Shown: one piece after another, positions 4,308 through 56,027 of the stretch
Layout of the letters: every line of letters begins with the position of its first letter
How positions within the stretch are numbered: position 1 is the first letter of the stretch
IMG/VR virus record: IMGVR_UViG_3300021197_000748
Span: 1 to 57,038 of that record
Source of the DNA: a virus
Taxonomy: Duplodnaviria > Caudoviricetes
Strand: one strand, 5' to 3'
DNA: 57,038 nucleotides
Made by a program: the position numbers and the translations under genes
Notes under the pieces: generated by a model
The model's input: only the letters and a program-made list of their open reading frames with translations
What the model was told of the DNA's origin: nothing
The model's database searches: none

Positions 4308-4348
4308 TGTTAACCTTTCAGTTGGGGTTCATTCGAAGCCATACTTTT

Positions 4349-4386
4349 TAAAAGAAAGCCTACGGCCCCTGTTACGGGACCGTAGG
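4349..4386 (-). terminator. Intrinsic terminator
   Basis: Minus strand CCTACGGTCCC-GTAACA-GGGGCCGTAGG followed by CTTTCTTTTT, just after the stop at 4398. Confidence 0.8.
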
Positions 4387-4397
4387 TATAAGATGTA

Positions 4398-7300
4398 TTA
4401 ATCGCCAACACGGAATCTGCGAGGCTCTTCGTTCTCCTGCAGCTTACGTGCGTTCGCAGCCACGATAGCTCTACCTTCGAGCTCACCCGGGCTGGTCTTC
4501 TGGTTACTGGTACTAATAATACCACCACCAGCGACGGTGCTACCACGTCCACTTTGGGCCGCGACTGTTCGTCGTTGCTTCTCATTAGCAATCTGTACTC
4601 GTTGTTCCTCAGTAGCCGGCACGCGTACAACATTACCGCCGACGCCGACAAACAATTGAGCAGCACTTGAATGCTGGTCACTAGACTCGTAAGCAACTTG
4701 ACCACGGAAGTGCATCTGCTTGTCGCCCACGGGAAGATCGTTATTACGGCTAAGGCTCCACTTTGCGGAGACCTTTTCATTGAGTGCATCCTCAACAGCC
4801 TGCATAAACTTGCCACCAGCAAAGCCACCACCCATAGCCCAGGTTTCAATAACCTGTTCTGCTTCAGCAGGGTCCATGCCGTAGTCAGCGATATCGATAT
4901 CAAGAACCTCAAGCATACCGAGCGTAGCCGTAGCAGCGCTATCGGCAACTTGAGTACTATTCTCACCGCGACCGGCAGCGTTGAGCCACATCTGGCGGCC
5001 AACACTAACCTGCACGGTACCGCCAACGCCGTTGAGATCAACAGTTCCGGCATAAGCCGTCTCAATATCCATCGGCGGACGAACGCCATTAGAGGCACTC
5101 ATACCGCTGATAATTGTAACCATTGCTTCCTGAGCGCCAACTGGCGCCATGGCATCCTGGCTAGTCATCATAATATCCTCAAGACCACCACCAGCAAGGC
5201 TGCGGGCCCAAACCTCTTCGGTCTTGGCAAGAGCGAGGTTACGCTCAATCCACATGCGGGCACCAGCTGAGGTCTCCGGATCTAGCAGGCTCGCCTGAAG
5301 CGGCGCATTGCCGGGAGTCTTCTCCCACTGAGCGCCGAGTACCTGCATGATCGGATCACGCTCAAACTTCTCCAAGTTCTGCGCAAGGGTACGTTCGTCC
5401 AGCCCGGGGTTCAAGATCCCAGCAACGGGAGCCATGTAGTCCGTTTCAACCATAGCCTGCATAGCCTGGCTGGTCGCGGCACCGTAGGCTGCGTTCATCC
5501 ATTGGTCTCTACCCTCCGCGGGCAAACCCATGGCGTCGTAGAGCCCAGCGAGCTTCGTGCCCTGGGTGAGCTCCCAACCAAAGCGGCTAACGTTTTCCGG
5601 ATCAGCCGAGCCCGTCGCAATACGCATAGCGATATCACGGGTTTCGGTCCGGCTGTACAGCGCGGCAAGGTTATTAACCTTAACCTGTTCACTCTGAGCC
5701 AGGGTCCCGTTTCGCAGCGCCTCGATGCTCACCTCAGTAGGTCGCATAGTCTGGAGCACCTGCTCATGGTCGGGGCCTTCAAGCATCGCCGAGATGGCGA
5801 CGACTGAATCGGCCGGGGTGAACGGGCTCGCAAGAAGCATAGACAGCTCCTGCGCACTTTCGGGCCGCAACGGATCGAAGGTGTCGAGCAGCGTTTTTGC
5901 TGCGCGGTTCACCTGATCCGGGGTCGGTGCATTGGGGTCAAAAGCAACGGGCTCGTTCGGGTTTTGCATCTGCTCGAACCGAGCGTTCTGATAACCACGA
6001 ACCATTTCAACATTCTGCAGTTCCTTAACCTTCTGACGGTGGGCAGCGATTGCTGCACCCATACCGGCGGGCGGACGCTGGCCATCTGAGCCAACGTACA
6101 CGAGCGGGCTGTCACCGAGAGCGGACGCAAGCCCGTGCGTGTTTTCTCGGCCGTCGAAGTTAAGCCGTATGGCCCAACCAGAGTCGAGCATACCCGGGTT
6201 TTCGCCGAGCGCGCGATTAAGCTCGCTCATGGAGGTAAACTTATGCATCGCCTGGCCGTCGGCGCCTACGAGCGCGATGTCCATAGTGCCGTCGAGGCCA
6301 GATGCCGCAGTAGCCACATTACGCACAAGTGTGTTGGTCGCACCGCGGTATTGGCTGAGGCTCTGTATCTTAGGCACAGCGGCCGACCACTCGTCGACGT
6401 TGCTGGCAATACCAGTCATCATATTATCCTGTCGACCTTCCACCAGCTTCTTACGGAGGCTACCAATCGTACCATTCCAGTCTTCTTCACTCGTAAAGCC
6501 ATACTGGCTGTAGAAGTCTACATCACCGTTAAGGGCCACGAGCATTGAATCAAAAGCCTGGTTACGCTGGTTGATAGACATATCACCATGGATGATCGCA
6601 TCCGCGGCGCTACCGAGATAGTCAACCAGCGCCTTGCGCGACTTGGTTCTACCATCGTCGTCTTCCGTGGCAAAGGCGGCAGTAGTGCCAACCGAGCCAT
6701 CGATCACCGCGGCCATAGCCGTAAGATCGCCACCTGCGGCAGCGGTACGGACCAGCATCGCCGGATCGGTGGGACCAACCTTGGGAGCAGCAGCCTTACG
6801 CGTGGACGTGTGGTTCCGTGAGAACCCGCCGTGCGACATAACAGTTGCCAGCTCGTCAAATCTATTAGTATCAATCAAATCGGGGTTATCGAGGGGACCG
6901 GCAAACTCGCCGAGGTCCCTCGCCACCGCTTCAGCCATCTCTTCACCGATATTACCAGCGAAGTGACCCTGATGGACTACGCCTTGGTTATCTCGATACT
7001 GGATACCACCATCCGGAGAGATGACGATACGATCACCATTCTCACCACCGCCCATGAGCGAATACATTCGCGCCACGTCGTTGGCCTGTGGAGTCGAGAG
7101 ATCATAGGCGCTTACGCCAGCCTTGGTCAGGTTCTCACCGAGCTCGAAGCTCGTACCCTGAACCGTAGACTTGTACATCATGTTCTGGATCTGTCGGCCA
7201 GTACCAGCCACGGACCCGTTGAGCCGGATCCGCTGCTTGTTCAGCTCTGCGAAGTAGCGAGAGTCCGGGTCGGCCGTAGCCAGCATCCGGTTAACCTCGT

Positions 7301-7820
7301 CGAGCGCGTCGCTATCGTTCATCTTCGAGAGGATACCGAGGGAGTTGTTGAGCTTTTCATTCTCAAATACCATCTCCTCCTTACCCTCAATTTGCGCCAT
7401 GGCAGTATTGTACTTCTTAGCCGTCACGTCGTTAGGACGGTACGTGTGGCCTCGAGCCCACTCAGCCATCTTGCGGGCGTCTCCACCCGTCAAGCGCTGC
7501 TGCTCGGCCATCTCGCTTTCAAACTGAGCATACTCCTTTTCGGAGGTATACTGATACATCTTCTGATAGTTCTGGATACCCTGCTGGGCACCAACGGCCG
7601 CACCCTGAAGAATGGTGAACAGCTTGCTGCCGTCATCCTTGATACGAGCCTGCTGGCCGATCTGGATCTGAGACGGTGCGGACTCCTGGAGCTTGGAGAT
7701 CGCAGCACCAATGGCTGCTCCCTCTGCTCCAACAATTCCGCCTACACCTTCCGGGTTAACCGTCTGTCCTTGTAGCTGTGTCGCGCTGCCGCGAGCTCGC
7801 TTATTATCTGGTTGTGGCAT
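4398..7820 (-). CDS. Internal virion protein (gp15-like), 1140 aa
   Basis: Long Ala/Gln/Met-rich ORF with AAAGGA RBS between the gp14-like and gp16-like genes; assigned by size and position only. Confidence 0.6.
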   Translation of the reverse strand: MPQPDNKRARGSATQLQGQTVNPEGVGGIVGAEGAAIGAAISKLQESAPSQIQIGQQARIKDDGSKLFTILQGAAVGAQQGIQNYQKMYQYTSEKEYAQFESEMAEQQRLTGGDARKMAEWARGHTYRPNDVTAKKYNTAMAQIEGKEEMVFENEKLNNSLGILSKMNDSDALDEVNRMLATADPDSRYFAELNKQRIRLNGSVAGTGRQIQNMMYKSTVQGTSFELGENLTKAGVSAYDLSTPQANDVARMYSLMGGGENGDRIVISPDGGIQYRDNQGVVHQGHFAGNIGEEMAEAVARDLGEFAGPLDNPDLIDTNRFDELATVMSHGGFSRNHTSTRKAAAPKVGPTDPAMLVRTAAAGGDLTAMAAVIDGSVGTTAAFATEDDDGRTKSRKALVDYLGSAADAIIHGDMSINQRNQAFDSMLVALNGDVDFYSQYGFTSEEDWNGTIGSLRKKLVEGRQDNMMTGIASNVDEWSAAVPKIQSLSQYRGATNTLVRNVATAASGLDGTMDIALVGADGQAMHKFTSMSELNRALGENPGMLDSGWAIRLNFDGRENTHGLASALGDSPLVYVGSDGQRPPAGMGAAIAAHRQKVKELQNVEMVRGYQNARFEQMQNPNEPVAFDPNAPTPDQVNRAAKTLLDTFDPLRPESAQELSMLLASPFTPADSVVAISAMLEGPDHEQVLQTMRPTEVSIEALRNGTLAQSEQVKVNNLAALYSRTETRDIAMRIATGSADPENVSRFGWELTQGTKLAGLYDAMGLPAEGRDQWMNAAYGAATSQAMQAMVETDYMAPVAGILNPGLDERTLAQNLEKFERDPIMQVLGAQWEKTPGNAPLQASLLDPETSAGARMWIERNLALAKTEEVWARSLAGGGLEDIMMTSQDAMAPVGAQEAMVTIISGMSASNGVRPPMDIETAYAGTVDLNGVGGTVQVSVGRQMWLNAAGRGENSTQVADSAATATLGMLEVLDIDIADYGMDPAEAEQVIETWAMGGGFAGGKFMQAVEDALNEKVSAKWSLSRNNDLPVGDKQMHFRGQVAYESSDQHSSAAQLFVGVGGNVVRVPATEEQRVQIANEKQRRTVAAQSGRGSTVAGGGIISTSNQKTSPGELEGRAIVAANARKLQENEEPRRFRVGD

Positions 7821-7831
7821 AGTTAATCCTT

Positions 7832-8590
7832 TCAGCCTGTGTAGAACCGAGAAAGCCCGGCAAGGTTTGTCTGTGCCTGGCCGATGCTGTTTCCACCAGC
7901 GCCAAACATGCTAGACATATAGTCATTAGCGGAGGATGCCTCGAGTGCACCACCACCGCCCTGTGAGCCATCATACATACCGGCTGCGCCACCGATGACC
8001 TGACCCATAGCGCCAAGTGCGGTAGCCGCAAGCTGGCCGCTGGTATCGGGCATCGGGATCGGGCTGCTCGGGAAGTACGTCGGCGGCTTCGGCGTTGCCG
8101 AGCCGCTGAACAGCTGGGCCATAGCGGCATTACGCTTGTTCTCGAACTGGTCACGCTGGTTGCTGAAGTTCACCCGGATCCGGGCGGAGTCAGCAGCAGC
8201 ATCACGGTCGAGCTGAGCGCGGACCGCATCGGCGGTACCACCACGGCCAGCACCACGGCTGGTCATGGACATCTCCGCTCGAGCCTTCTGCTGGCGGAAG
8301 TTACGACTGAACTGGTTAGAGGCGTAGGCCTCCTGGTTACGCGACGCCCGCTTCTGGGCGAGCATCGTAGCCAGGCTTTCCTTCTGGCCTTGGCTCTGTC
8401 GCAGCACCTTCTGCATCTCAGCGAGACCCATCTGGCCACGCTGCTGCTCAAGGTTGTACTGCTTCTCAAACTCCTGGAGCTGGCGGTTCATTTCTGCCTG
8501 AGCTGCCTGAGCCTTCTGCTGCTGGCCCTGTGCGGCCGAACCCATAATGGACCCAACGGCACCGAGCGCCAAACCTGCAAGCATAATCAT
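7832..8590 (-). CDS. Internal virion protein (gp14-like)
   Basis: N-terminal Gly/Ala hydrophobic segment (LAGLALGAVGSIMGSAAQ), Gln/Ala coiled coil, then a second Gly-rich hydrophobic segment: typical podoviral ejection protein layout. Confidence 0.65.
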   Translation of the reverse strand: MIMLAGLALGAVGSIMGSAAQGQQQKAQAAQAEMNRQLQEFEKQYNLEQQRGQMGLAEMQKVLRQSQGQKESLATMLAQKRASRNQEAYASNQFSRNFRQQKARAEMSMTSRGAGRGGTADAVRAQLDRDAAADSARIRVNFSNQRDQFENKRNAAMAQLFSGSATPKPPTYFPSSPIPMPDTSGQLAATALGAMGQVIGGAAGMYDGSQGGGGALEASSANDYMSSMFGAGGNSIGQAQTNLAGLSRFYTG

Positions 8591-8593: not shown

Positions 8594-10300
8594 TTATCTC
8601 CTTAAGAAACTTCCGCGCTTTGGGCGGTTGTTGCCAAAAATAGTTGTTACACGAGATGTACCACTGCCACCGCGAGCGTCGCTGATGACCTGGCCTCGAC
8701 GTGAGTCGTCGACCCACATCTGAATATAGTCTTCCTCGGCCTTCGCAATGTTACGAGCGGCCATCTCATCAACATCCACCTGCAGCCCGTCCCGCCAGTG
8801 ATCACAGGCAGCCGAGAGCACATCAACACGGTCATCGTGCTTGAGCGCTCCCTTCATGTCCGTGAGACGGGTGAGCTGGATCTGGTTCGGCTCCTCGCGG
8901 ATTGCCTTGGTGTTGAACACCAGACGATGAGCAGCCATAACAGGTTCGATATTACTAATCATTCGAGCCTCCTTCATACCGGAGACCCTATATTCCTCAA
9001 CGCCCACCTGGCCACAGATCCTGCCCACCACAGGGCGGAGCAGCGCAGCCACGGTACCATCACCGAAGTTGCTTTCAACGTGGATCTGGTTTGCGTTGTA
9101 CTGTAGAGCGTACTTGGCGATCTTCTCGAGTGTCGGCTCATCATAGCCACCCTCGAGTCCCACCAGCTCATGGACAACAATATATCCATTAACCAGTGAA
9201 GCCACGCACAGGCCCGTTTCATCCTTACCGCGGCCAGACGGGTCAACGAAGACGCACGTCTGGGTGTAGGGGATGTACTCGCCGGACACGTACATTGGCT
9301 TGTAGATCATATCACCGGACATCCCGAAGCTAGGCACCTTTCTGTGCGCCTCGCCGTTGGCCCAGACGATCTTGGCCGGGAACATCTCGGGGTCTACATC
9401 GAGCACGATCAGGTCAGCAAGCCGCAGTGGATACTTGTCCACATCAGCCAGCGAGCAGTCGAGCCTGTAGTGTAGGTCAAACTTGGCGGGGCCGATCTTG
9501 GCCCGTCGCTCATCGAGCAGCTCACTGCTGAACCGCTCGGGCTGGGTCGAGTCCCCGGGCTCCAGCGGCAGATCCTTGATCCACTGAGCCACGTTCTCGC
9601 TCTGCGACTTGATCGTAGGATCAGGCATGCAGGCAGGGAACTTGACCTGTGGGTAGCCAGCGGCAAGCTGGTTGTAGATAGAATCGCGCGTCTGAGGCGT
9701 TCCGAGCATGATAACTCGTCCACCGGGGTTACGGATCTGCTCGAGCTCATGGAGCCGTCCCAGCAGCTTCTCGCGCTGCTCAGCGGTGTCTGAGTTGCCT
9801 TCGATCTCGATATCATCGGTGATGACGATATCAGCATGGCTACCGGTAATCTGACTGGTAATACCACGGGCAAACACCGAGCTGTCCTGGCCCACCTTGG
9901 ACCGGGCGCCACTGTTAAACGCGAAGGCGTTGTCAGTCATGTGGTCACCCGGTGCTAGGTGCTGGCAGTAGGGTACGAGGTCACAGATCCGCCGGGTCAT
10001 GGAGATAAACTCCACAGCCTTCTGAGCCGTAGCCGACAGGACCATGATCGTGCAGTTGGGGTCTCGGAGCAAGAACCACGATACGAGGATCGAGGTCAGC
10101 ACCGACTTGCCGGCACCACGGCCGGCCTGGAGCTGCATGTCCTCGCCATGGTGCTGCAGCGATTCCATCATCGCGTACTGCAGGGGCGTGGGCTCAACTC
10201 CAAATAGATATTTAATACACGCATACAGATGGTTACGAGCATCCTCGACCATCTCCATGGGGACGTCATCTGGGATGTCGTCATGTGAAATTGGATTCAT
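8594..10300 (-). CDS. Terminase large subunit (T7 gp19-like)
   Basis: QAGRGAGKS Walker A, ITGSHADIVITDDIE, LGTPQ, VDPSGRGKDETG, ESNFGDG and HDDRVDVL nuclease motifs. Confidence 0.97.
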   Translation of the reverse strand: MNPISHDDIPDDVPMEMVEDARNHLYACIKYLFGVEPTPLQYAMMESLQHHGEDMQLQAGRGAGKSVLTSILVSWFLLRDPNCTIMVLSATAQKAVEFISMTRRICDLVPYCQHLAPGDHMTDNAFAFNSGARSKVGQDSSVFARGITSQITGSHADIVITDDIEIEGNSDTAEQREKLLGRLHELEQIRNPGGRVIMLGTPQTRDSIYNQLAAGYPQVKFPACMPDPTIKSQSENVAQWIKDLPLEPGDSTQPERFSSELLDERRAKIGPAKFDLHYRLDCSLADVDKYPLRLADLIVLDVDPEMFPAKIVWANGEAHRKVPSFGMSGDMIYKPMYVSGEYIPYTQTCVFVDPSGRGKDETGLCVASLVNGYIVVHELVGLEGGYDEPTLEKIAKYALQYNANQIHVESNFGDGTVAALLRPVVGRICGQVGVEEYRVSGMKEARMISNIEPVMAAHRLVFNTKAIREEPNQIQLTRLTDMKGALKHDDRVDVLSAACDHWRDGLQVDVDEMAARNIAKAEEDYIQMWVDDSRRGQVISDARGGSGTSRVTTIFGNNRPKRGSFLRR

Positions 10301-10340: not shown

Positions 10341-10559
10341 TCATCCGCCCGTGTTGAGTTTGAACGGGGCCGAGTCACGGAGGATATTCTTAATCTCCTC
10401 GGACTTGACGGTAGGCATGTCATCCATGTTCCCTCGGTAATCCGAGAGAAGACCACGAGCAACCTGCGCCCAGCCCGCGGTGGGCTCGCGCTCGAGCTCG
10501 TTGATGACAGCCGAGAACAGAACCTGTTCCAGCTGTTCAACCTTGTTATCTTTCATCAC
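10341..10559 (-). CDS. Probable terminase small subunit (gp18-like)
   Basis: 72-aa helical protein directly upstream of TerL; PTAGWAQVARGLLSD resembles the gp18 core helix. Confidence 0.55.
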   Translation of the reverse strand: MMKDNKVEQLEQVLFSAVINELEREPTAGWAQVARGLLSDYRGNMDDMPTVKSEEIKNILRDSAPFKLNTGG

Positions 10560-10837
10560 TTCTTCTTTCTGGCGGGAGCACGCTTAGGCTTGCCACCCGC
10601 TCCGTTGCGAGCCCTGTTCTTGGACGGGCTCTCGAGAAATGTCGAACCGTCAGCGCGATGGGAGACATCCTTGCCACCCTTGCCCATAATGCCACGCTTG
10701 CGGCGGTTACGGGCAGACTCGCGTCGCTTCTTCTTCTCTTCCGGTCGTCTGTTGATCTTGGCCTGAGCCTTCAGCCGGCGCTTGCGCGCCGCGGGGTTCG
10801 AGGCAAAATACTTAGCAGTTCTAGACTTTGCAGCCAT
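10556..10837 (-). CDS. Small basic phage protein with degenerate HNH-like motif
   Basis: Lys/Arg-rich; GKDVSH...ESPSKNRARN pattern; overlaps the next gene by ATGA. Confidence 0.65.
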   Translation of the reverse strand: MAAKSRTAKYFASNPAARKRRLKAQAKINRRPEEKKKRRESARNRRKRGIMGKGGKDVSHRADGSTFLESPSKNRARNGAGGKPKRAPARKKK

Positions 10838-11101
10838 TCAGCACCTCCATCGTTTGCGGGCAGCCTTGCCACGTTCACCAGTCCAGCCCTTCGAGCGGGC
10901 GCAGAACGACTTACGTCGACCCGCAGCCTTGCTACCGGGCTTGACCTTACCGGTGACGGCGGTCTTGAGCTTACTCCCGGGGTTAGCCTTACGGTACTTG
11001 GCGACACCCTTCTTGGTGAGGCCAGCGCCCTTCTTGACCGAGCGCTTCTCGCCACGGCCAACGGACATCTTAACGTTCTTGCTCTTTCTTTTTGCTGCCA
11101 T
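10838..11101 (-). CDS. Small basic phage protein (DUF6321-like)
   Basis: GLTKKGVAKYRKANPGSKLKTAVTG...RRKSFCARS...RWRC, a recurrent phage protein pattern; family name recalled, not searched. Confidence 0.7.
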   Translation of the reverse strand: MAAKRKSKNVKMSVGRGEKRSVKKGAGLTKKGVAKYRKANPGSKLKTAVTGKVKPGSKAAGRRKSFCARSKGWTGERGKAARKRWRC

Positions 11102-11279: not shown

Positions 11280-11489
11280 TTAGGAGTTTTCTTCTTTTGA
11301 CTTCTCAAGTAGGGTAATCCTTGTTTCATGGTGTTGAAGATGGTTGCGCATATCGTGGATACTACGTCGGTTGGTATCCGTTTCCTTAATCACATTATCC
11401 AGCTTATTTTCAATAGCCGGGATCTTCCATACCCTCATGAGCACAAAGCCAACCATCCCTGTAATAAGATACAGGAAATATTCAATCAT
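11280..11489 (-). CDS. Single-TM coiled-coil protein, holin-like lysis-region protein
   Basis: AGGAGG RBS before MIEYFLYLITGMVGFVLMRVW (TM), then a coiled coil ending HETRITLLEK. Confidence 0.55.
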   Translation of the reverse strand: MIEYFLYLITGMVGFVLMRVWKIPAIENKLDNVIKETDTNRRSIHDMRNHLQHHETRITLLEKSKEENS

Positions 11490-11507
11490 TACTTCCTCCT
11501 GCATCGT

Positions 11508-11915
11508 CTACCTCCCTCTGGCAATCGAAGAACCGCCAAGATAGAAGCCAACAGCGGCGAGCAAAGCAGCCCGCAGCTCAGGCAGTACAACGATACCAGT
11601 AAGACTCTCCCAGCCTCCAGTGAAGATTCCGAGGAAGTCCCAAGGGGCTCGCTCGGACTCGACGTAGGTGGGCATTCCAATGAGTCCACCGATGAAGGGG
11701 GCGATAGCCACGACCCAGAGTACCGTGAAGACGAGCACCCGACGACCGACATGAGAACCACGCACAGCAGCGCGATCAGCGGAATCGTCAGCCACAGCTT
11801 GCTTCTGTAGCAACATCTCTGTAGTCTTCTGCTGGTTCTCAATGGACGTAGCCATAAAACGAAAGATGAAGCCAGCAAGGCCACCACCTAACATACTAAT
11901 AAGTTCCATACTCAT
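11508..11915 (-). CDS. Holin, 3TM/GTA-holin-like
   Basis: MSMELISMLGGGLAGFIFRFM, central TM after GRR, C-terminal AAVGFYLGGSS motif; ATGA overlap with the upstream gene. Confidence 0.65.
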   Translation of the reverse strand: MSMELISMLGGGLAGFIFRFMATSIENQQKTTEMLLQKQAVADDSADRAAVRGSHVGRRVLVFTVLWVVAIAPFIGGLIGMPTYVESERAPWDFLGIFTGGWESLTGIVVLPELRAALLAAVGFYLGGSSIARGR

Positions 11916-12535
11916 CGCATAATCCAATCTTTATTAAAGGGCTTGAACCACCATTCTGTGGTGTCTCGCATCTGCCAGCCGTCATTGGTCACACCAATCC
12001 AGCCATCGGTTCCGTGTGCCTCCTGCACCAGGTTAAGCCAAGCGTTGAAGGCTTCCCCGTAGAACCCTGCGTTGTCGAGCACCATAACAAGGTGGCGTTG
12101 AAATTCAGACGTATCACATCCGATATTAGTGGGCGGCGTAGGATCCCAGCTGCAATAGGCAGCATGGAACCAGACCGCACCGTTGTTTGCAATGAGTTGG
12201 TGATCGCCTGCAGCCCACATAATAGCCGCTGCAGACCAAGCACCCACTCTATCTCCCGCGATAGTTACCAATCGAGGATGGGCTTCCATCTTCCAATAGA
12301 GACCCAAACCAGCATAGGCGTCACCGCCGCCGCTGTCAATGGTCAGGAGGATTACACGATTACCAGCCCGCGAGACAAGAAAGTCCCAGAGGTAGAGATC
12401 GATGCGCTCCACAGTACCAGTGTAATGAACGGAGATGGATACACCATCCTCGTCCTTCACCTCGAACCGTCCTGCACTTGCTGAGGAACACAGCGATGCG
12501 ACAAGCACCAGTGCTCCCATAATAAAGTTTCTCAT
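11912..12535 (-). CDS. ClpP/crotonase-fold serine peptidase with N-terminal signal peptide
   Basis: Start MRNFIMGALVLVASLCSSASA (Sec signal, AxA cleavage) after AAGGA; ClpP motifs LTIDSGGG, AWSAAAIMWAAG (catalytic Ser) and VWFH (catalytic His). Confidence 0.75.
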   Translation of the reverse strand: MRNFIMGALVLVASLCSSASAGRFEVKDEDGVSISVHYTGTVERIDLYLWDFLVSRAGNRVILLTIDSGGGDAYAGLGLYWKMEAHPRLVTIAGDRVGAWSAAAIMWAAGDHQLIANNGAVWFHAAYCSWDPTPPTNIGCDTSEFQRHLVMVLDNAGFYGEAFNAWLNLVQEAHGTDGWIGVTNDGWQMRDTTEWWFKPFNKDWIMR

Positions 12536-12585: not shown

Positions 12586-12617
12586 GGGGACACAGGCCAC
12601 AGCTGACCTGTGCCCCC
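12586..12617 (-). terminator. Terminator-like hairpin
   Basis: Minus strand GGGGGCACAGGTCA-GCTG-TGGCCTGTGTCCCC then TTATTAT; G-U pairs fit the minus strand; weak U-tract. Confidence 0.65.
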
Positions 12618-12781: not shown

Positions 12782-15124
12782 TTAATCGGGATCCTTTGGT
12801 AGGTATCCCATTTGAGGTGAAGTATTACTTCTATGAATATCCTTACGATAGCTGCCGAGGCCAGGAGTATATCCTGAACCCGATTGCTCATAAGACCACG
12901 TGCCTGGGAAAGAGCCCTCGACCCCGACTGGAGTATATACCAGCGAGATTCGGTCAGCATCAGTAGCAGGACTAGAGAGTCGTACTACATCCTGTTCATC
13001 GAAAGACGGAACAGAAGAGCCAGAGCCCTGGTCGGCATCGAGACAACTAATCATACGAACGCCGGGAGGCAGCTTGTCAGTCTTGTAAACCATATCAAAG
13101 TTAAGCGGGTAGGTGGGGTCTGGGTTATCCCAGGCAGCACCCGCCGCCTCGCTACGAATAGCCTCAAAGACGCAATTACGTATGATAAAGTTCTTTGCAA
13201 TAAATGCCTGGTTGGGAAGAACAACTTCATTGTCGCCAGGCTTTCCGCTAGGATCAGAACTGTCCCAATGATCTCCTACATCTGCTCCCGGCTTAACCGA
13301 GCGCCAGGGAATGTACTCGTGGTATCTTCCATTAAGCTGATATTCAGAAGTTTGCATCCAAGGTTCCGGTCGCAGCCATTCGACAGCCTCATGAACACTG
13401 CTCAAAGGCTTAGGATGATCGAAGTCAGGACGGAAGACCGTAGACTGATCTAGGATCGTAAGATTCTCAAAGAGAATATGCCTAGCCCATGACGCATGTT
13501 GGGAAACCACAATAATTGTACCCTCGAGGTTCTCAAAGATGCAGTTAACAAATGCTTGGTTACTATGAGCCGAGTCCGTCTTACCGATGAGGATGTTCTG
13601 CACATCTCTATCTTCAGTAGCCTGGAAGCCGAAGTGAATAATATTATTACTCGGACGACCCTGGATCTGGAAGTGGTCACAATGCCACAGGTTTCGATTA
13701 TAAGGACTAGCAGCACTCCAGGTCTGATCGTCTTCAATCGACGCGCCAGTACCCAGAGTAAGCTGCGGGTTCCCTAGCTCGTAGGCTCCCGCTCCTCCGG
13801 GAAGAGATGGATCCCTAGTCGCGGGGTCATCATTAACCAGCTGATTCTGACGGCATGTACAGTCTACGCTAAAGGTAGTCCGCGCCATAGAATCATGAGT
13901 AATCGCTTCCTGATGGGTGTTTCGGACCATGTCCAAACCACAGGCACCGTAACGCACACCGAAGAATGTGGAGTTCTCAACAAAGTTTCCTCCACCATCA
14001 AAGGAGTCATTAGCGCGGATAGGATAGCTCTGGGACGTACGCAGCCAATCGCCACGTACCCAGTTCCACTTACTATCTTCGAATTTACAGTCAGAGAACA
14101 TCCAGATGGTTGCATCCTTTTCTGGGTGCACTCCTGGGTCGGTGTCTTCTGCTACCTCCCCGTACAGCTGACCGATATGCTCAATCATAAAGTGAATACC
14201 GGTGCAGTGGATTCTTCTATGCTGAGGTCGCCAATCAAAGCGCTCAGGGTCTCCTCCAATAGGAGTACCATCCTGAGGCTTCAGCTGTACGCCGACGCCG
14301 TCAGTCTGCTCGCTCCAGCTGAGACCAGGACCTGCTTCAATCTCTAGCGGATGAAGTGGGTTATCTCGCTTAAACGTGATCGGAGCCTCGTACACTCCAA
14401 GGTCGTTTATGATAATCTTCAAACCGGCGCTGCCGATAAGATCTAGATCAGTTGTATCTACGGCCTTTTGAGGATTGCGGTAAGGAGAGCCGATAGTACC
14501 ATCGCCCGTGGTATCGTCCCCGTTAACGGAAACATACTTGATAATTTTATCAGGCTTCGCAGGGAGCATCAGCAATGACTGCAGCCCTGAGCGGTTCGTT
14601 CTGTATCTGTAGGGCTCCGTATCCTCGTTGCCGGTCCACATAGGGGACTGAAGGACAAGAGGGATCCCCGAGCCTACGGGATAAACCCGAGCTCGGAGCT
14701 CTACGTAACCCTTAGCATCTACATTGTTGGCGTCAGTAAGGGTAAGCTTACCCCAATACTCTCGGTTACCGGTGCGAGGGTTGTTAACCAACCCCCGCGC
14801 CGTAACCCAAGTACCACCATTACAGGAGAACTCGACGCGATCAATACCGTTCATATGAAAAGCAATGACCCCGATCTCGTACTCCGTATTCAGCTCCCAC
14901 GTCTTATAGGGCATCTCTGCCCAGCGCGCAATCGCTGTTTCATCGTAGCCAGCGGCTGTGCCGTAGCCAGCGATCTCAGGAGTAACCGCGGTAAAGCCAG
15001 TTCCCACAGGGATCACCGGATGAACCGGATCAATGTCCCAATCACCGACACCAATTTCAATACCGTCAGCAATGACTGACCACATTGATGTGTCGTTAAT
15101 TGTGAATCTATTTTTATTAGTCAT
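12782..15124 (-). CDS. Tailspike/depolymerase-like protein (Ig-like domain + right-handed beta-helix), 780 aa
   Basis: N-terminus MTNKNRFTIND; GYDETAIARW...NGIDRVEF domain; YVSVNGDDTTGDGTIGSPY beta-helix cap; HCDHFQ motif. Confidence 0.65.
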   Translation of the reverse strand: MTNKNRFTINDTSMWSVIADGIEIGVGDWDIDPVHPVIPVGTGFTAVTPEIAGYGTAAGYDETAIARWAEMPYKTWELNTEYEIGVIAFHMNGIDRVEFSCNGGTWVTARGLVNNPRTGNREYWGKLTLTDANNVDAKGYVELRARVYPVGSGIPLVLQSPMWTGNEDTEPYRYRTNRSGLQSLLMLPAKPDKIIKYVSVNGDDTTGDGTIGSPYRNPQKAVDTTDLDLIGSAGLKIIINDLGVYEAPITFKRDNPLHPLEIEAGPGLSWSEQTDGVGVQLKPQDGTPIGGDPERFDWRPQHRRIHCTGIHFMIEHIGQLYGEVAEDTDPGVHPEKDATIWMFSDCKFEDSKWNWVRGDWLRTSQSYPIRANDSFDGGGNFVENSTFFGVRYGACGLDMVRNTHQEAITHDSMARTTFSVDCTCRQNQLVNDDPATRDPSLPGGAGAYELGNPQLTLGTGASIEDDQTWSAASPYNRNLWHCDHFQIQGRPSNNIIHFGFQATEDRDVQNILIGKTDSAHSNQAFVNCIFENLEGTIIVVSQHASWARHILFENLTILDQSTVFRPDFDHPKPLSSVHEAVEWLRPEPWMQTSEYQLNGRYHEYIPWRSVKPGADVGDHWDSSDPSGKPGDNEVVLPNQAFIAKNFIIRNCVFEAIRSEAAGAAWDNPDPTYPLNFDMVYKTDKLPPGVRMISCLDADQGSGSSVPSFDEQDVVRLSSPATDADRISLVYTPVGVEGSFPGTWSYEQSGSGYTPGLGSYRKDIHRSNTSPQMGYLPKDPD

Positions 15125-15137
15125 ATAGCTCTCCTAC

Positions 15138-17930
15138 TTAGCTGTAGTTAGACCAGCCGCTGATGTCACCTGGGTCTTGCGAAAGACCCACGACAACCAG
15201 GGTATCACCAGCGGTCGGAACCGTGCCGCCCAGAGTATACTGCTGAATCTGACCGGAGTCGGTCTGCCACGCATGCGTAGTCCACACACCAGTAGTAGCA
15301 TTCCAGACAGCGATGTACGGGACATCTGTCTCGTAGGCTGCGGTTACAGTCCCACTAAGATCTCGAACCTGAACCGCACTAGTAACTCGTAGTTGTGAAA
15401 TATCAAAGAGCTGACCGGTAGGAGTCATAGTCACTCCAGTTACCCAAGTACTGCCGTTGGAGACGATCGAACTCGTCTCGGCAATGGCGTAGGTATCCCA
15501 GTCATCGGCCACGCCCGGAGGAGCCATCTTAAAGCTAAACAGAGAGATACCTCGTCCGTTAACCAAACCAGAAGGCGCAAACCAACCGAAGTTGTTCCCG
15601 TGATCGGTCACAAGACTGCCGTCAAAACTTTGGTCACAGAACTGAGTTCCTGTATCATCATCGCCAACCCAGCCTTCCAGCGTGTAGTCCACCCCGTCGT
15701 AAGTAAGACGAAGGAACATGTGAGCTTCGGGATTCGCGGCAAGATCGCCGGGGAACATATCGAAAGTCTGATTGCTTTCTGAATTATTAGTATACATCGT
15801 AATAGCGGATGTATTAGTACCGGCCTTAGGGGCAATACCAATCACCGTATAATCACCGTCGGCTCGATCTCCACCATTGATAATAAAACCAAAGACTGCG
15901 CCAAGAGACGACTGCGCACCACGGGCAGCCTTACCTTCCATTACCCAGCCACCAGACGGGGGCGTGCCCAAGTCCGTGACAAAGGAGTCTTGCCATGTGG
16001 CATCGCCGATAACACTCTTAGAGATGTGTGTATCTAAATACCAACCATTACTGCTTGAGGAAGACTGCAGAGCCCACGTAGGTCCGCTAGTGTCCTGTAC
16101 GCCGTAGTTCTCAAAGACACGCCCACCGGATACCCCAAAATCGGTAGTAGTACTATTGTCAATAACCCCTGAGGCAGTCGCCATCGAAGTAAAATCGATA
16201 TCAAAGTACGGAACCTCAGGAGCTGGTTCAGGCCGCGAGGCAATAGCACCGGTCGAGAGATCAATTACATACTGATGGAACTCAGCAGCGGTTACTACCG
16301 TGCCTTCCCCGTCGGTCATAGACCCTACGGGATCTCCACCGGCTCCAACAATCAGACCAGCCTTGTGCATATCATACAGCACCTGCTTAAGAGTAAGCCA
16401 GTTAATATCCATAAAGGGCTGAACCTCTGTCTGATTGCCCCAACGTACGGTACAATGTACCTCGGTATCCGAACCAAACTGATCAGCACTTCCCGTTACA
16501 GCGGGGTTACCAATAGTAGCAGACGTAGCATTATCGCTAGCATCAGCATTAAACACCGTGAGATTCTTTTGGATGTTGAGAGCATTACCATTAGAGTCAA
16601 GTCCACTGTAGCCAATCACCGTACCGAACAAACCAAGACAGGCGCTAGTGGTATAGATACCCGCGTTGTCTCCTTTGTACATTTCAGTGGTAGCATTAAA
16701 ACCGGCCATAGGGATAGACTCAACCATGGGGCTAAACCCTAGTCCCGTGAAAACATTCGTCAAACGAGCGCTGCCCGGACGGGCGGCAATAGCGTTCTGA
16801 CCCGTACCTTCACGTACCATACCCTCGGAATTAAACCAAAGCCTTGCTCCGGTATCGAGGCCAATTTCATTAAAGCCCATGGAATACAGCCCAGCCGCCT
16901 CAACATCCCACCAGCCCTCAAACTTTTCGTTAGAGCTCGAGATGCCGGGGTTATTAGCATCAACGTAATCAAAACCAGGCTGGGGGTTATAAGAAGGATT
17001 ATTTCCACCTGCGTCCGGATCCCAGCCGTCGATATCACTAGGCGAAGACGTTCCGAGAAACGTGCGATCGTAGGTTGCCATATCGTTATTAGTATAATTA
17101 GGTCGATACCCGGAGTAAGATTGAATCTTGGGTGGTCCCGGTGCTGGGCCAACTCTAGCAGCAATGCGATCTTTAATCGCCGTGATTGCTGTAGTCCAAG
17201 CAGCTTCGGAGTCACCAATAGTACCATCTATGCCGTTAGGCGTGAAGGGGCTAGTAGTAGTTCCAGTACTAAAGTTACCAACCCAGGGCGCTGTGGACTG
17301 CGACAGACTACTATAGGGATTAGCTGGATATTCAGGGGCATAACCCCCGCTTCCGTTGTTCTGGTTGATGTAGCCAGCTGGGTTCCAGATTCCAACCCTG
17401 TCAAACCCAGCATCAATCGCCGGGTAGATCTTATTTTCTGTCCAAAGCAATCGCCCATTGGTTTGTGAATCAGTCATATCATTACCCGCTGCAGGGGTTT
17501 TACGATATTGCGTTTGGGGAACACCCCACGCTTCACCGTCTGAAACTCCGCCAGGGGCATTATTTGTAGCCGGGCCGTCAGTGCTTGTGGAAGTAGCAAA
17601 TCCAGAAACAAGCATTGGTCGTCGATCGGCCTGGAAAGTGATGCCAACGAACTCCACGTTAGTTCCCGACCAGGACGTAATGTCCGCGGGAGTGGTAAAG
17701 CCCGCATCGGAGTAAGCCTCGATGTCGTAGAGCTTACCCTGCTCCATCGAATCGTAATCAGTGATAGGATTCTCGGAGTCTCCGGTCTCGAAGACCTTGA
17801 GGTAAAGAGCACCGCCGGAAGCCGTGGTGAACGTAGCCATAAAAGCTGGGTCTTGACCCGCAGTTGCGGCGGTCAAGGTGAACGTCACGTTCTCGCCCGC
17901 AGGCGTAGTAAATGTAAGTGAATTAGCCAT
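15138..17930 (-). CDS. Large receptor-binding/glycan-active protein, 930 aa
   Basis: Gly/Thr/Asp/Trp-rich; possible TIM-barrel segment (AGFDRVGIWNPAG, GFNEIGLD, MVESIP), lectin-like beta region and C-terminal Trp-rich module; cassette RBS. Confidence 0.55.
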   Translation of the reverse strand: MANSLTFTTPAGENVTFTLTAATAGQDPAFMATFTTASGGALYLKVFETGDSENPITDYDSMEQGKLYDIEAYSDAGFTTPADITSWSGTNVEFVGITFQADRRPMLVSGFATSTSTDGPATNNAPGGVSDGEAWGVPQTQYRKTPAAGNDMTDSQTNGRLLWTENKIYPAIDAGFDRVGIWNPAGYINQNNGSGGYAPEYPANPYSSLSQSTAPWVGNFSTGTTTSPFTPNGIDGTIGDSEAAWTTAITAIKDRIAARVGPAPGPPKIQSYSGYRPNYTNNDMATYDRTFLGTSSPSDIDGWDPDAGGNNPSYNPQPGFDYVDANNPGISSSNEKFEGWWDVEAAGLYSMGFNEIGLDTGARLWFNSEGMVREGTGQNAIAARPGSARLTNVFTGLGFSPMVESIPMAGFNATTEMYKGDNAGIYTTSACLGLFGTVIGYSGLDSNGNALNIQKNLTVFNADASDNATSATIGNPAVTGSADQFGSDTEVHCTVRWGNQTEVQPFMDINWLTLKQVLYDMHKAGLIVGAGGDPVGSMTDGEGTVVTAAEFHQYVIDLSTGAIASRPEPAPEVPYFDIDFTSMATASGVIDNSTTTDFGVSGGRVFENYGVQDTSGPTWALQSSSSSNGWYLDTHISKSVIGDATWQDSFVTDLGTPPSGGWVMEGKAARGAQSSLGAVFGFIINGGDRADGDYTVIGIAPKAGTNTSAITMYTNNSESNQTFDMFPGDLAANPEAHMFLRLTYDGVDYTLEGWVGDDDTGTQFCDQSFDGSLVTDHGNNFGWFAPSGLVNGRGISLFSFKMAPPGVADDWDTYAIAETSSIVSNGSTWVTGVTMTPTGQLFDISQLRVTSAVQVRDLSGTVTAAYETDVPYIAVWNATTGVWTTHAWQTDSGQIQQYTLGGTVPTAGDTLVVVGLSQDPGDISGWSNYS

Positions 17931-17990
17931 TCGGCTCTCCTTGTAAAAGTTAAGTAAAGTCCCTGCTGCCCCGCTAAGAGCAGCAAGGGA
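17926..17990 (-). repeat. Intergenic cassette copy 1 (hairpin + U-rich spacer + AAGGAGAG RBS)
   Basis: Minus: TCCCTTGCTGCTC-TTAGCG-GGGCAGCAGGGA CTTTACTTAACTTTTACAAGGAGAGCCGAATGGC. Confidence 0.85.
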
Positions 17991-18001
17991 AGTGTTGGTT
18001 A

Positions 18002-20029
18002 TCAGCTAGGGGGAGTATTGTCTCCACCCCAGGCAGTGCTGTACGAAGTTGCTCTTGGCAGCGTCTGAGGAATGTGCGTATCAGTCCAATCGACCGTGAT
18101 GTTTTCCAGCTCGGCCTGAGTAGGAATACTTGACCAACGTACACCAATAGAACCTCCATCGGCTGCTGCCGTCGTGGCAACGCCCTGAGTGGTAAGAGTC
18201 AACCGATCAAATACATCCGAAGTTGTATTAAAGAACGGAAGGTCGGTAGAACCCCAAGAGGTAGTGCCGATTGCACTCCCGTTGATAGGAAGGAACAAGT
18301 TTGCAAATCGCTTAGAAGGTCCACCGAGACCGTTGTCGCTCTCAAAAGCAGTCATCATTCGACCAGCTACGTTTGACTCCAAGGTAAGCGAGGAGTTTAT
18401 AAGGTTGCTCATAATCGCACTAAATGATGTTGAGATACTGCCCGTAAGAATAGTATCATCAGCAAACAGAGTGTTATGTCGGAACTCCACTAGCTGAGAG
18501 GCGTTAAGCACCGTGTCCACACCGCCGTTAAATGCAAGAACTGTCTGACCGTTTAGAACCTCATTGTTAGGCTGTACGGTTGCGTTAGTTACGATAAGGT
18601 TATTATTAAACTTCATCGAACCTGTAGTCGTATGAGGATCACTATTGTAAGGCTGAAAGGACATAGCCCGTGCGCAGTTGAAGAAGATGCAGTTCTCGAC
18701 CGTGGCGTTAATCCAGGAATCTTGGTACAGAGAGATACCCTGACCGTGACCTGTGGTTGGAAGACTGAAGTAACATCCGCTAATAAGTGAGGGCTCGATA
18801 ACGGTCGTCCCGACCTGGTCACCCATATTACTAATAGCCGATTTATTCTCCATGCCTCTAAACGTACTGTTTACAATACGACATCCGGGTCCTGTGATAA
18901 TAGCCGAGGATTCCAGCCGATAAAAGGTACATCGCTCTACGTCGTTAGCCGTTCCATAGCACGCATACTTACCAAAGCTAAAGCTGCAGTTCTTAAGGGT
19001 ACTCTTACGAGTGCCGTCAGTACGAGCCGACAGCAGACTGGCGTTGTAGGTTCCCTGAGAGCCTCCGATGAAGGTAGTCCCGTAAAACTGAATGTCCGCC
19101 AGACCGCCACTAGAGACCTCAAAGATATGAGGCCGAAGCGGCATTGCGGCAGACTGCGGTACCCCATTAACGGGGTTGTAGTAAATCTTCCCGTTATTGA
19201 TATCGATAGAGTACTCACCGGGCGCTAGATCCTGACCACCATACATGCAGAAGGACAGGTAGCCATTATAAGTAATACCAAAGTCCTCCGCAAAGGTCAT
19301 AACACCGGTGTTTGAATCCCAGGCTGTAGGTATCCTGAACGCAGTCACGTTAGGTCCAGCGTGGATGTTAATACCAACGGAAGAAATACCTACCGCATTT
19401 ACGCGGGCAGTGATCTCATTTCTAAGGGTCGGGTCTGTCACAGTAAATCCGGTGATTAGCTCGCCCTGCGCGTCGTCTCCGCCATCCGTTTGGGCAGTAC
19501 CGTTGTTGATCCCGTTAGACGTCGAGTTGACCTTAAGCCAGTTGCTGTTCACGGAAAATCGATTATTTCCATAACCAGAAGGGACTGCCGGGTAAACCTT
19601 CAATGCTGGAGCATCGTCTTGGTCGGCATCTACTAGATAGTTTCTCATGTCGTCGAGCCAACTCAGGTTAATATCCGAGCTATATACCCCGCCGCCTAGA
19701 TCTGTCCAAGAGGACAAAGCCTTTGCTGCGGTGAGGTATCCTCCAACCACGATCAGATCCTTATTATTGTTAGTTGGAAATGGATCGGTATTGTCTTCAG
19801 GCTCGAAGCCTTGTCCACGAAGATCCAGGGATCCCCCGTCGGGCGTAGCGTCTAGAAGTGTCTGCAAGCTAGACCACGTTCCCATAGTTGCGGGTCGCGC
19901 TTCGCCGACACCGTTCGGTCCAGTCCCTTGGTCAGGGATACCACCTTGGATCTGCACGCTATCGTTCTCAGTCGCAGCCTCAATAGACCAGACGAGATCG
20001 GAGGTAGTAAATCGATTTCTATAAGCCAT
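18002..20029 (-). CDS. Right-handed beta-helix glycanase-like tailspike, 675 aa
   Basis: N-terminus MAYRNRFTTSD; WTDLGGGVY and PGEYSIDINNGKIYYNP motifs of beta-helix glycosidases; repeated NCxF/RCTF rungs; HGQGISL. Confidence 0.65.
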   Translation of the reverse strand: MAYRNRFTTSDLVWSIEAATENDSVQIQGGIPDQGTGPNGVGEARPATMGTWSSLQTLLDATPDGGSLDLRGQGFEPEDNTDPFPTNNNKDLIVVGGYLTAAKALSSWTDLGGGVYSSDINLSWLDDMRNYLVDADQDDAPALKVYPAVPSGYGNNRFSVNSNWLKVNSTSNGINNGTAQTDGGDDAQGELITGFTVTDPTLRNEITARVNAVGISSVGINIHAGPNVTAFRIPTAWDSNTGVMTFAEDFGITYNGYLSFCMYGGQDLAPGEYSIDINNGKIYYNPVNGVPQSAAMPLRPHIFEVSSGGLADIQFYGTTFIGGSQGTYNASLLSARTDGTRKSTLKNCSFSFGKYACYGTANDVERCTFYRLESSAIITGPGCRIVNSTFRGMENKSAISNMGDQVGTTVIEPSLISGCYFSLPTTGHGQGISLYQDSWINATVENCIFFNCARAMSFQPYNSDPHTTTGSMKFNNNLIVTNATVQPNNEVLNGQTVLAFNGGVDTVLNASQLVEFRHNTLFADDTILTGSISTSFSAIMSNLINSSLTLESNVAGRMMTAFESDNGLGGPSKRFANLFLPINGSAIGTTSWGSTDLPFFNTTSDVFDRLTLTTQGVATTAAADGGSIGVRWSSIPTQAELENITVDWTDTHIPQTLPRATSYSTAWGGDNTPPS

Positions 20030-20088
20030 GTGGCTCTCCTTGTAAAGTTAAGTAAAGTCCCCGCCTCTCCGGTAAGAGAAGCGAGGGA
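20025..20088 (-). repeat. Intergenic cassette copy 2
   Basis: Minus: TCCCTCGCTTCTC-TTACCG-GAGAGGCGGGGA CTTTACTTAACTTTACAAGGAGAGCCACATGGC. Confidence 0.85.
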
Positions 20089-20092
20089 AGGG

Positions 20093-23000: not shown

Positions 23001-23170
23001 TGTACAATCGTAGCTTGCTCATCTTCAGTAAGCGTAGGGGAAGACTTAGTATAGTTAGCATCCCCATTCCAGACTACAGCGCTTACAGGCGCTGAGACAC
23101 CAATAGTCTCTCCATTGGCACTTACCTGCCAAAACGTATCTGTAATAGTAAATCTATTTTTATTAGCCAT
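20093..23170 (-). CDS. Tailspike/depolymerase-like protein, 1025 aa
   Basis: N-terminus MANKNRFTITD; TGIEQVNFY Ig-like domain; LTPGLY and FENITLD beta-helix start; HQDGVQ; C-terminal Ig module YKW...SYTVQAEDVGKSLTC. Confidence 0.65.
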   Translation of the reverse strand: MANKNRFTITDTFWQVSANGETIGVSAPVSAVVWNGDANYTKSSPTLTEDEQATIVHLFLAETFYVADDDALYACASADTYDSTGIEQVNFYYGGSSAQTVTEITQRIMPDGTKVQGYWVRIDNSNTAPTDYEDRTLYAEAIPRSPSVIPARVVSRTIRVMEDATKIHTVNLNAADLDLTKNTRIDYVEPDGTLYSPNLHSNICRYNQDNSTQYKAIDFVLTPGLYTIQSVSTFPALDSTDPLTAGYRRIRSSTGDKNDVTIILSSDFPGTTEEDADSFDPTWTTCSLRNGDPILFENITLDMYNNLAFTLGSEGFIPLVFNECTIKDSSMSYGKSPTGRQNPAIRSDQADDPGASTKNPYEQTLFRGSDANARLNVGLYNTFINTIVCGGPSSIFNCDGAIWWDTLYFLTTAAEAGVNNFRHITSYGPNASGTDLDTERYVSNGFGLSTGGIDVNGKYYYDYADSVGNDSIARGTCEISRITWVAEDGTFYATDTDVINAGKNILEWRAYLVTPPTTWPARYKQSSDIDGTYGDCTAGTRFYDFDFFVWKSGQPLTPAGRTFAAKSYVSSSACLTYVDDADWGRNPYPATVGNRVIDGNGKALMSWSNSRPSFPIGEGVDPLDPALPYMRMYSPARYDNPDGAPLFAAEGLDINTDTVAAYYSSGGLNPVTDTPANGLLAQAFIDNILTMDMQAGDRVCPIFWAHQDGVQTSNSPATMNNTLFHDYTSVMEQQFLFQASGAVSDCVFSNALFLDPKDVRADTLFKIEKPAPMRLGIKGTNMDNWVNMSTGTREADAEDIHLHIEGSSISQTDGTSNSSSPPGAFDVQFKDSALGTVGTFSTTWLGNPNVVPAASNTMVANYVSNSGNKEWGVSKYGAIEDGGLLHTSLVSDPVTLDLGSVLPYDIKGNPRTANSLPHPIDAIETGSTGNETITTLLPFNRFRIPPASNNATRKVPTDVVALEYEGELLENDAAPRSYKWMLGSTVVSTASSYTVQAEDVGKSLTCFLTADGVTEAIPFGLIKSS

Positions 23171-23227
23171 GTGGCTCTCCTTGTAAAGTTAAGTAAAAGC
23201 TCCGCCTCCCCGGTAGGGGAGACGAAG
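23166..23227 (-). repeat. Intergenic cassette copy 3
   Basis: Minus: CTTCGTCTCCC-CTACCG-GGGAGGCGGAG CTTTTACTTAACTTTACAAGGAGAGCCACATGGC; 33 bp identical to copy 2 (23165-23197 vs 20024-20056). Confidence 0.85.
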
Positions 23228-56026: not shown

Positions 56027-56027
56027 A

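Follow-up and report, generated by a model that had tools for sequence, protein, structure and literature searches.

The IMG/VR virus record IMGVR_UViG_3300021197_000748 (Duplodnaviria; Caudoviricetes) is linear, comprises 57,038 bases and has an estimated completeness of 85%. It was analyzed over its entire length and is referred to here as the window. Every recognized gene lies on the minus strand, and the gene order is T7-like. A preliminary description of this DNA had pointed to a cassette of three genes, headed by a gene for a ClpP-like hydrolase with a signal peptide (P0001), and had linked the hydrolase to a neighboring holin-like gene and to lysis. The ClpP-like gene occupies a late position, between fiber-like genes and the gene for the terminase. 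The elements of the locus are as follows (ORF, open reading frame; TM, transmembrane; aa, amino acids):

11280-12535, minus strand: three-gene cassette (ClpP-like gene, 3-TM gene, TM plus coiled-coil gene)
12586-12617, minus strand: strong hairpin of 14 pairs (9 G-C) with a loop of 4, then T-rich TTATTATGAC, found in a scan for terminator-like structures
11912-12535, minus strand: gene for the ClpP-like hydrolase P0001 (207 aa), an ORF with an ATG start and AAGGA upstream
12473-12535, minus strand: Sec-type signal peptide MRNFIMGALVLVASLCSSASA, codons 1-21 of P0001, assigned by sequence rules and by conservation in homologues
11508-11915, minus strand: gene for the 3-TM membrane protein P0002 (135 aa), with three hydrophobic segments
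11489-11887, minus strand: embedded ORF in the +1 frame of the 3-TM gene, a candidate spanin-type lipoprotein
11280-11504, minus strand: gene for the TM plus coiled-coil protein P0003 (74 aa), with a hydrophobic segment at residues 5-21 and a heptad-like helical tail

The N terminus of P0001 reads MRNFIMGALVLVASLCSSASA followed by GRF. It has a single basic residue and a hydrophobic core of 12 residues, and, as judged from these features, signal peptidase I is likely to cut after A-S-A. The N-terminal segment is rich in Gly, Ala, and Ser. Among 46 non-overlapping minus-strand ORFs, hydrophobic N termini were seen solely in the three cassette proteins, in a gp14-like protein, and in one ORF of 74 aa; P0001 was the sole recognized candidate for an exported soluble protein in this set. 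The motif IDSGGG spans residues 66-71, GAWSAAA spans residues 98-104 (codon of Ser101 at 12233-12235), and VWFH spans residues 121-124 (codon of His124 at 12164-12166). A pair of cysteines, Cys128 and Cys140, is located in the loop beyond His124. The TGA stop codon of the gene overlaps the ATG of the 3-TM gene (ATGA). The Sec-type signal, DSGGG, the serine of AWSAAA, and the histidine of WFH, all listed in the preliminary description, were found on the minus strand at these coordinates, and so were the ATGA overlap, the 3-TM gene, and the TM coiled-coil gene that it had placed next.

The hairpin at 12586-12617 is situated between an upstream fiber-like gene and the ClpP-like gene, about 50 nucleotides (nt) before the start codon of the latter. 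Folding of the 255-nt intergenic RNA yielded z = -2.97, and 0 of 200 shuffled sequences folded equally well. Judged by its sequence, the hairpin is possibly a terminator or an RNA-processing site that delimits the cassette. A scan of the cassette region for sigma-70 promoters returned 3 sites versus 1.9 expected, a result that is uninformative for a phage with its own RNA polymerase.

Homologues of P0001 were collected from 1.84 billion cluster representatives by an exhaustive search with HMMER. It returned 48 proteins at E <= 1e-3, of which 15 reached E <= 1e-10 and 4 reached E <= 1e-30. Among the 48 is P0015 (1272 aa, E = 6e-18), a protein of tandem repeats that was matched over 17 stretches; it was discarded as a low-complexity artefact and is apparently unrelated. 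P0001 scored 19.6 bits against Pfam CLP_protease (PF00574), just below the gathering cut-off of 20.2. It matched phrog_1684 (head maturation protease) with E = 1.7e-6 and NCBIfam NF045542 (ClpP-related head maturation protease) with 29.1 bits, the cut-off of the latter being 120. An alignment of 19 family members, A1, served as input both for a profile and for AlphaFold. The profile matched solved ClpP chains with E = 3.3e-8; in this alignment, GAwSAAA fell on the catalytic-Ser motif, vgfH fell on the catalytic His, and the xSxGG loop was aligned. The AlphaFold model of P0001 had a mean predicted local distance difference test score of 90.9 and a predicted template modeling score of 0.85. The top PDB matches listed for the model were ClpP only (Foldseek E about 1e-5, template modeling scores of 0.45-0.60), and the best BFVD matches were phage ClpP-like proteins (template modeling scores up to 0.61). 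One BFVD neighbor carries the name crotonase. The fold matches also included a 688-aa "putative tail protein" from a Cellulophaga phage. The profile match, with Ser and His aligned, and the AlphaFold model put the ClpP assignment of P0001 beyond chance; the predicted fold of the protein is that of ClpP.

Conservation was analyzed in 56 complete homologues, taken from fetched loci and from representatives, of which 47 were distinct. A rule on the start codon excluded L007, L062, and L063, which share one sequence. Ser101, His124, G40, D46, G70, G71, and G175 were invariant in all 47 distinct homologues, Cys128 was kept in 40 and Cys140 in 41 of them. A hydrophobic N-terminal run followed by a small-x-small site was present in 43 of the 47, the residues themselves varying widely. 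The stretch beyond His124, which presumably corresponds to the position of the ClpP handle, was modeled by AlphaFold as a coil of ~18 residues carrying both cysteines. The family alignment contained neither an invariant Lys nor, after His124, an invariant acidic residue; the hidden Markov model (HMM) alignments end before that region. This pattern reads as the signature of a working Ser/His hydrolase that would be exported and would contain a disulfide. It is in line with the exported ClpP-fold Ser/His protein predicted in the preliminary description, namely in the signal-type N terminus, the modeled fold, and the catalytic residues.

Distant relatives P0024 (31.8 bits) and P0029 (21.5 bits) exceeded the CLP_protease cut-off. 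The distant bacterial proteins P0026, P0031, P0039, and P0041, which we assume to be those named COG3904, possess the same Ser/His motifs and signal-like N termini, and some have long C-terminal extensions. SPOR and peptidoglycan-binding domains were considered for the distant bacterial relatives and rejected: P0026 had none, and P0041 yielded solely a sub-threshold match to PG_binding_1 (21.6 bits versus a cut-off of 23), which is too weak for use. P0020 (673 aa) consists of a signal peptide and a ClpP-like domain fused to a C-terminal part of ~470 aa. This part weakly resembles fiber-like proteins of the window (E = 0.002 and 0.019), had no Pfam match, and came with no viral locus; the fusion was given no weight.

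ClpP is the cytoplasmic core of the ATP-dependent Clp protease. P0001 resembles ClpP (MEROPS S14, PF00574) in its predicted fold, in the positions of the catalytic Ser and His, and in the xSxGG loop. Unlike ClpP, it bears a Sec-type signal and a cysteine pair, stays below the Pfam cut-off, and lacks a recognizable counterpart of the catalytic Asp, which we take to be Asp171 in E. coli numbering; moreover, no partner ATPase is present among the recognized genes of the window. To our knowledge, peptidases of the SppA/SohB/NfeD type (S49 and relatives) are the only well-known exported members of the ClpP fold. P0001 shares with them the fold and an active site that is predicted to lie outside the cytoplasm. 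The exported S49 proteases use a Ser-Lys dyad. P0001 differs from them by its invariant His, by the lack of an invariant Lys, and as a small soluble single domain that is not membrane-anchored. No match of P0001 to Peptidase_S49, SDH_protease, or NfeD was found in Pfam at E <= 1.

The linkage of the protease gene to the membrane cassette was examined in a set of 49 rows (the window plus 48 loci). Removal of 9 duplicates, 4 loci running off a contig end, and 2 with <=100 nt left resulted in 34 determinable distinct loci. In 28 of these, the start of the 3-TM gene falls between -11 and +11 nt relative to the protease stop codon, and 17 of the 28 have the ATGA overlap. The coupling of the protease to a holin-like gene, which had been described for the window, was thereby recovered in a survey of gene neighborhoods of its homologues. 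L036 and L037 have 1.38 kb between the ClpP-like gene and the 3-TM gene. The remaining 4 loci (L005, L006, L066, and L054) have no downstream 3-TM gene. In L054 (1040-2161), a lipoprotein gene is followed by a 62-aa gene for a P0003-like TM plus coiled-coil protein and then by the ClpP-like gene, after which no 3-TM gene was present within 553 nt. Viewed from the other side, 10 of 15 determinable viral loci with a 3-TM gene had no ClpP-like gene upstream. Two complete relatives, G001 (69,509 bases) and G003 (57,266 bases with direct terminal repeats), both rated 100% complete, contain the cassette of 3-TM and TM-coiled-coil genes and lack the ClpP-like gene. Thus, the protease occurs nearly always with the cassette and the cassette usually without the protease, and the linkage is strong in one direction only. 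The protease is an accessory gene of the lineage. Identity to the window across loci ranged from 34 to 90% for the protease and from 79 to 99% for the 3-TM protein.

P0002 belongs to phrog_38283, a family of unknown function (E = 1.1e-30), and matched no Pfam holin family. A total of 173 proteins are related to it at E <= 0.001, with at least 73% identity for the best 120; all 173 are unnamed or "hypothetical." Contigs of 57-71 kb carry many of the relatives. Among cultured or named phages, only Verrucomicrobia phage P8625 (44.5% identity; L024, KP792622.1, 20402-20779) and Phage C75C1 (42%; L025, OQ984151.1, 35061-35444) have a relative of P0002, and both records annotate the gene as hypothetical.

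The ORF embedded in the 3-TM gene has a basic portion, a hydrophobic portion, a lipobox-like VVGC, a Ser/Pro-rich region, and a C-terminal hydrophobic stretch with a basic tail. It ends within the start of P0003, and its own start codon may be either GTG at 11887 or an internal TTG. Its conservation was followed in 35 distinct full-length homologous nucleotide sequences, the short L021 and L044 having been left out of 37. In all 35 sequences, the +1 frame remains open to the end, over 94-135 codons, and the lipobox-like motif is found at the same position in 34. In the most divergent sequences, whose 3-TM frames are 53-58% identical, an ATG immediately precedes the hydrophobic stretch of the embedded ORF. 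As a control for dual coding, each sequence was subjected to 1000 synonymous-codon shuffles. An open tail of at least the observed length arose in 0.9-19% of the shuffles, and one of at least 90 codons with a lipobox arose in 0.3-8.5%, depending on the sequence. No single sequence is decisive for the embedded ORF; the recurrence over many diverged lineages is. The high conservation of the 3-TM protein (79-99%) is explained, at least in part, by dual coding with this ORF.

P0003 matched phrog_739, "Rz-like spanin," weakly (E = 0.022), and a gene of its type always follows the 3-TM gene in the relatives. Its sequence gives it the shape of an i-spanin. The embedded lipoprotein ORF and P0003 are a probable spanin-type pair, as far as sequence features can tell. 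The free-standing small lipoprotein gene of L054, which has an internal start MKFVCILLLALLGAC... and a C-terminal hydrophobic stretch, appears to be a counterpart of the embedded ORF. In view of this counterpart, of the shape of P0003, and of the conservation of the embedded ORF, the statement in the preliminary description that the window has no spanin is probably wrong. Spanin genes have been described as embedded, overlapped, separated, or unimolecular (PMC6139136). The combination of a TM plus coiled-coil protein with a lipoprotein in an overlapping frame is reminiscent of lambda Rz/Rz1. Unlike in these described architectures, the lipoprotein ORF lies here inside the preceding 3-TM gene and upstream of the i-spanin-like gene. 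The hydrophobic C-terminal stretch of the embedded ORF also recalls the unimolecular spanin gp11 of T1; P0003 is short (74 aa).

A search for an endolysin was conducted at two levels. Submission of 38 minus-strand ORFs of the window yielded no PHROG of the lysis category and no lysin match in Pfam. A six-frame search of the window and four related records with nine Pfam lysin or peptidoglycan-binding families (Phage_lysozyme, Amidase_2, SLT, Peptidase_M15_4, Glyco_hydro_19, Peptidase_M23, PG_binding_1, Glyco_hydro_108, and Amidase_3) returned nothing; the tests with Glyco_hydro_19 (PF00182) and Glyco_hydro_108 (PF05838) were uninformative, these two families having been silent in control genomes too. 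P0001 itself contains no muralytic or peptidoglycan-peptidase domain detectable in Pfam, PHROG, or NCBIfam searches. The absence of an amidase or muramidase from the window, as first reported, therefore holds in ORF-level and six-frame searches alike. A comparison with G001 and G003 indicated that the missing ~15% of the genome is mainly early region. The two complete genomes gave no recognizable endolysin in six-frame searches. Ten early ORFs of G003 without a blastp match in the window or in G002, among them one thymidylate synthase and one DNA-binding protein, had no lysis match either.

G001 and G003 thus lack both the protease and a recognizable endolysin, which means that the missing endolysin is a trait of the lineage and is not compensated by the protease. 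The chief argument against P0001 as a replacement endolysin is that the endolysin is missing irrespective of the protease; this weakens the suggestion that P0001 might stand in for one. The preliminary description had named two observations that would speak against it in combination, a canonical endolysin elsewhere in the genome and homologues not linked to holins. Homologues without the holin-like gene exist (L005, L006, L066, and L054); a canonical endolysin was not found in the searches above.

We tentatively favor the view that P0001 is an accessory exported enzyme that helps in late envelope breakdown and is not the essential wall-degrading enzyme. According to this proposal, P0001 would be a serine peptidase of the ClpP superfamily that consists of a single domain, is exported by Sec and probably stabilized by a disulfide, and has Ser101 and His124 in its active site. 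It would be produced late, together with the 3-TM protein, the embedded lipoprotein, and the TM plus coiled-coil protein, the hairpin at 12586-12617 setting the three genes apart from the upstream fiber-like gene. P0001 may cross the inner membrane via Sec, form its disulfide, and accumulate in the periplasm late in infection. There it could cleave envelope proteins or peptides, for instance proteins that link the outer membrane to the wall or periplasmic lysis proteins of the phage itself, and would in this way aid or tune the last step of envelope breakdown. That the signal is cleaved and the enzyme is active, what it cuts, and that it has a role in lysis are all inferred. Because phages of the same lineage manage without it, P0001 would be a helper and not a core lysis enzyme. 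Mycobacteriophage LysB, a serine hydrolase that is not essential, severs the connection between the cell wall and the outer layer and hastens the last stage of lysis. By analogy, P0001 is comparable to LysB and to endolysins with a signal peptide or a signal-arrest-release domain in that a gene for an export-type enzyme stands beside a holin-like gene, and the accessory pattern is LysB-like. Unlike those endolysins and LysB, P0001 has no sequence or fold relation to them, and the analogy concerns gene position and distribution only. As to the earlier suggestion of an exported protease acting in lysis or on the envelope, the export part is borne out by the signal-type N termini of the homologues, and the helper role in lysis is a cautious proposal. 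For an atypical or protein-rich host envelope, which had been considered plausible, nothing was found; the Sec signal, the cysteine pair, and the lipoprotein gene fit an ordinary diderm host.

Several points weigh against a role in lysis. In L005, L006, L066, and probably L065, the protease gene is located between portal and scaffold, away from the 3-TM gene. No third catalytic residue equivalent to the Asp of ClpP was identified. P0002 appears holin-like by shape alone, its PHROG family being one of unknown function. Phages that lack the protease gene evidently get through their cycle, which makes any role in lysis dispensable. Finally, the slot between protease and cassette may be a hot spot for accessory genes of exported proteins, as exemplified by L036 and L037. 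The insert of L036 (1865-3244) and that of L037 comprise a gene for a 261-aa signal-peptide protein with dockerin-like DxDxDG repeats and two small ORFs.

There is also a different explanation, which we regard as rather unlikely: P0001 could be a periplasmic protease outside lysis, directed against a host receptor or an envelope defense or stress protein or serving as a superinfection block, and its gene would merely use a permissive insertion site. The patchy, accessory distribution and the differing genomic positions of the gene are in agreement with this, as is the other signal-peptide protein with dockerin-like repeats in the slot of L036 and L037. The protease also diverges far more than its neighbors; in L007 it is 34% identical to that of the window, compared with 76% for the terminase and 86% for the 3-TM protein. 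However, dual coding partly explains the conservation of the 3-TM protein, and the contrast in rates is weaker than it looks. Insertion at random would not be expected to place 28 of 34 loci within 11 nt of the 3-TM gene with 17 overlapping, and the third arrangement, that of L054, again adjoins cassette-type genes.

It is improbable, in our estimation, that the lineage lyses its host without any classical endolysin and that P0001 serves as a lysis enzyme in the members that have it. P0001 would then be a new kind of lysis enzyme, exported by Sec and unleashed by the 3-TM protein, that cuts peptidoglycan peptides or the tethers between wall and outer membrane together with the dual-coded spanin-type lipoprotein.

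Quite improbable, too, is a functional endolysin, Sec-exported or of the signal-arrest-release kind, that would cut peptidoglycan stems or cross-links upon depolarization by the 3-TM holin. The gene of P0001 occupies a slot that holds the endolysin in many cassettes, and its translation is coupled to that of the holin-like gene. Searches of the window revealed no member of a known endolysin family, and the Gly/Ala/Ser-rich N-terminal segment of P0001 resembles signal-arrest-release domains. The sub-threshold PG_binding_1 match in the distant bacterial P0041 points in the same direction. On the other side, G001 and G003 have neither the protease nor a recognizable endolysin, and another unrecognized wall-degrading function must exist in them; some homologues are far from the cassette. 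Furthermore, we know of no ClpP-fold enzyme that cuts the D-amino-acid-containing peptides of peptidoglycan, which counts against this explanation.

We consider it very unlikely that P0001 is a catalytically dead or non-peptidase protein of the ClpP/crotonase fold, e.g. a periplasmic binding or scaffolding protein. The lack of an identified third triad residue, the CLP_protease score just under the cut-off, and the BFVD neighbor named crotonase would agree with such a protein. Against it stand Ser101 and His124, found at the catalytic positions of ClpP and in every one of the 47 distinct homologues, along with the GG of the (D/N)SxGG oxyanion-type loop.

A prohead (head maturation) protease, to which P0001 is similar in being phage-borne, in its best named HMM matches (phrog_1684 and NF045542, both ClpP-type head maturation proteases), and in the 3-4 homologues between portal and scaffold, is largely refuted and scarcely conceivable, since P0001 and its portal-linked copies alike bear an export-type N terminus and the conserved cysteine pair, the NF045542 score is far from its cut-off, the complete relatives G001 and G003 do without the gene, the 207-aa protein has no C-terminal extension of the capsid-targeting kind, T7-type capsids mature without a protease, and, unlike the genes of head maturation proteases, most copies adjoin the membrane cassette rather than capsid genes, here in a T7-like carrier.

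Phage proteases of the ClpP fold are known as cytoplasmic capsid-maturation enzymes. Full-text literature searches listed no article about this lineage or about a ClpP-like protein exported by a phage. A conserved exported ClpP-fold form whose gene is tied, in a T7-like phage, to a membrane cassette of the lysis type would be a new use of the fold and, if P0001 acts on the envelope, a protease would join the short list of phage enzyme types that open Gram-negative cells. A marine phage lineage that is common in ocean metagenomes shows no recognizable endolysin; together with the apparent dual coding in the holin-like gene, this suggests a lysis system that is overlooked by current annotation pipelines.

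The family of ClpP-like proteins is small. Searching with the 9 closest sequences, we found 6 loci in IMG/VR; a further 42 were on marine metagenome contigs, and the family was found on marine viral and metagenome contigs only. A tblastn search with P0001 against 50,697 annotated phage records gave no match. A scan of 185,579 prokaryote species genomes (one each) with the family motif returned 35 pattern matches, none of which was a relative; the pattern, GAWS[AG]AAx[FML]W, is narrow, and the distant bacterial proteins P0026, P0031, P0039, and P0041 are outside its reach.

The virus belongs to an uncultured marine T7-like phage lineage. No cultured phage has a terminase more than about 40% identical to that of the window. 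The other recognized features of the window are, in gene order:

53450-56074, minus strand: RNA polymerase
49339-51108, minus strand: primase/helicase
47635-49326, minus strand: DNA polymerase
43210-45099, minus strand: ribonucleotide reductase
39458-41086, minus strand: portal
38455-39441, minus strand: scaffold
37117-38286, minus strand: major capsid protein
36208-36867 and 33284-36229, minus strand: tail tube A and tail tube B
12782-31180, minus strand: series of very large proteins with no family match
10341-11101, minus strand: small basic proteins
8594-10300, minus strand: large terminase
7832-8590, minus strand: T7 gp14-family protein (Pfam T7_gp14, 40.1 bits), then two very large ORFs

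The gp14-like gene and the large ORFs follow the terminase, whereas in T7 their place is before the fiber genes. The two very large ORFs beyond the gp14-like gene (region 3-8590, minus strand) encode 1140 aa and more than 1435 aa, the second running off the record. ORFs of 5014 and 3489 aa occupy this place in the complete relatives G001 and G003, respectively. The small basic proteins include two very basic ones of 93 and 87 aa (10556-11101, minus strand), which belong to phrog_6437 and phrog_10346, both of unknown function. These two are 90 and 96% identical to their counterparts in L007, the terminase of which is just 76% identical to that of the window.

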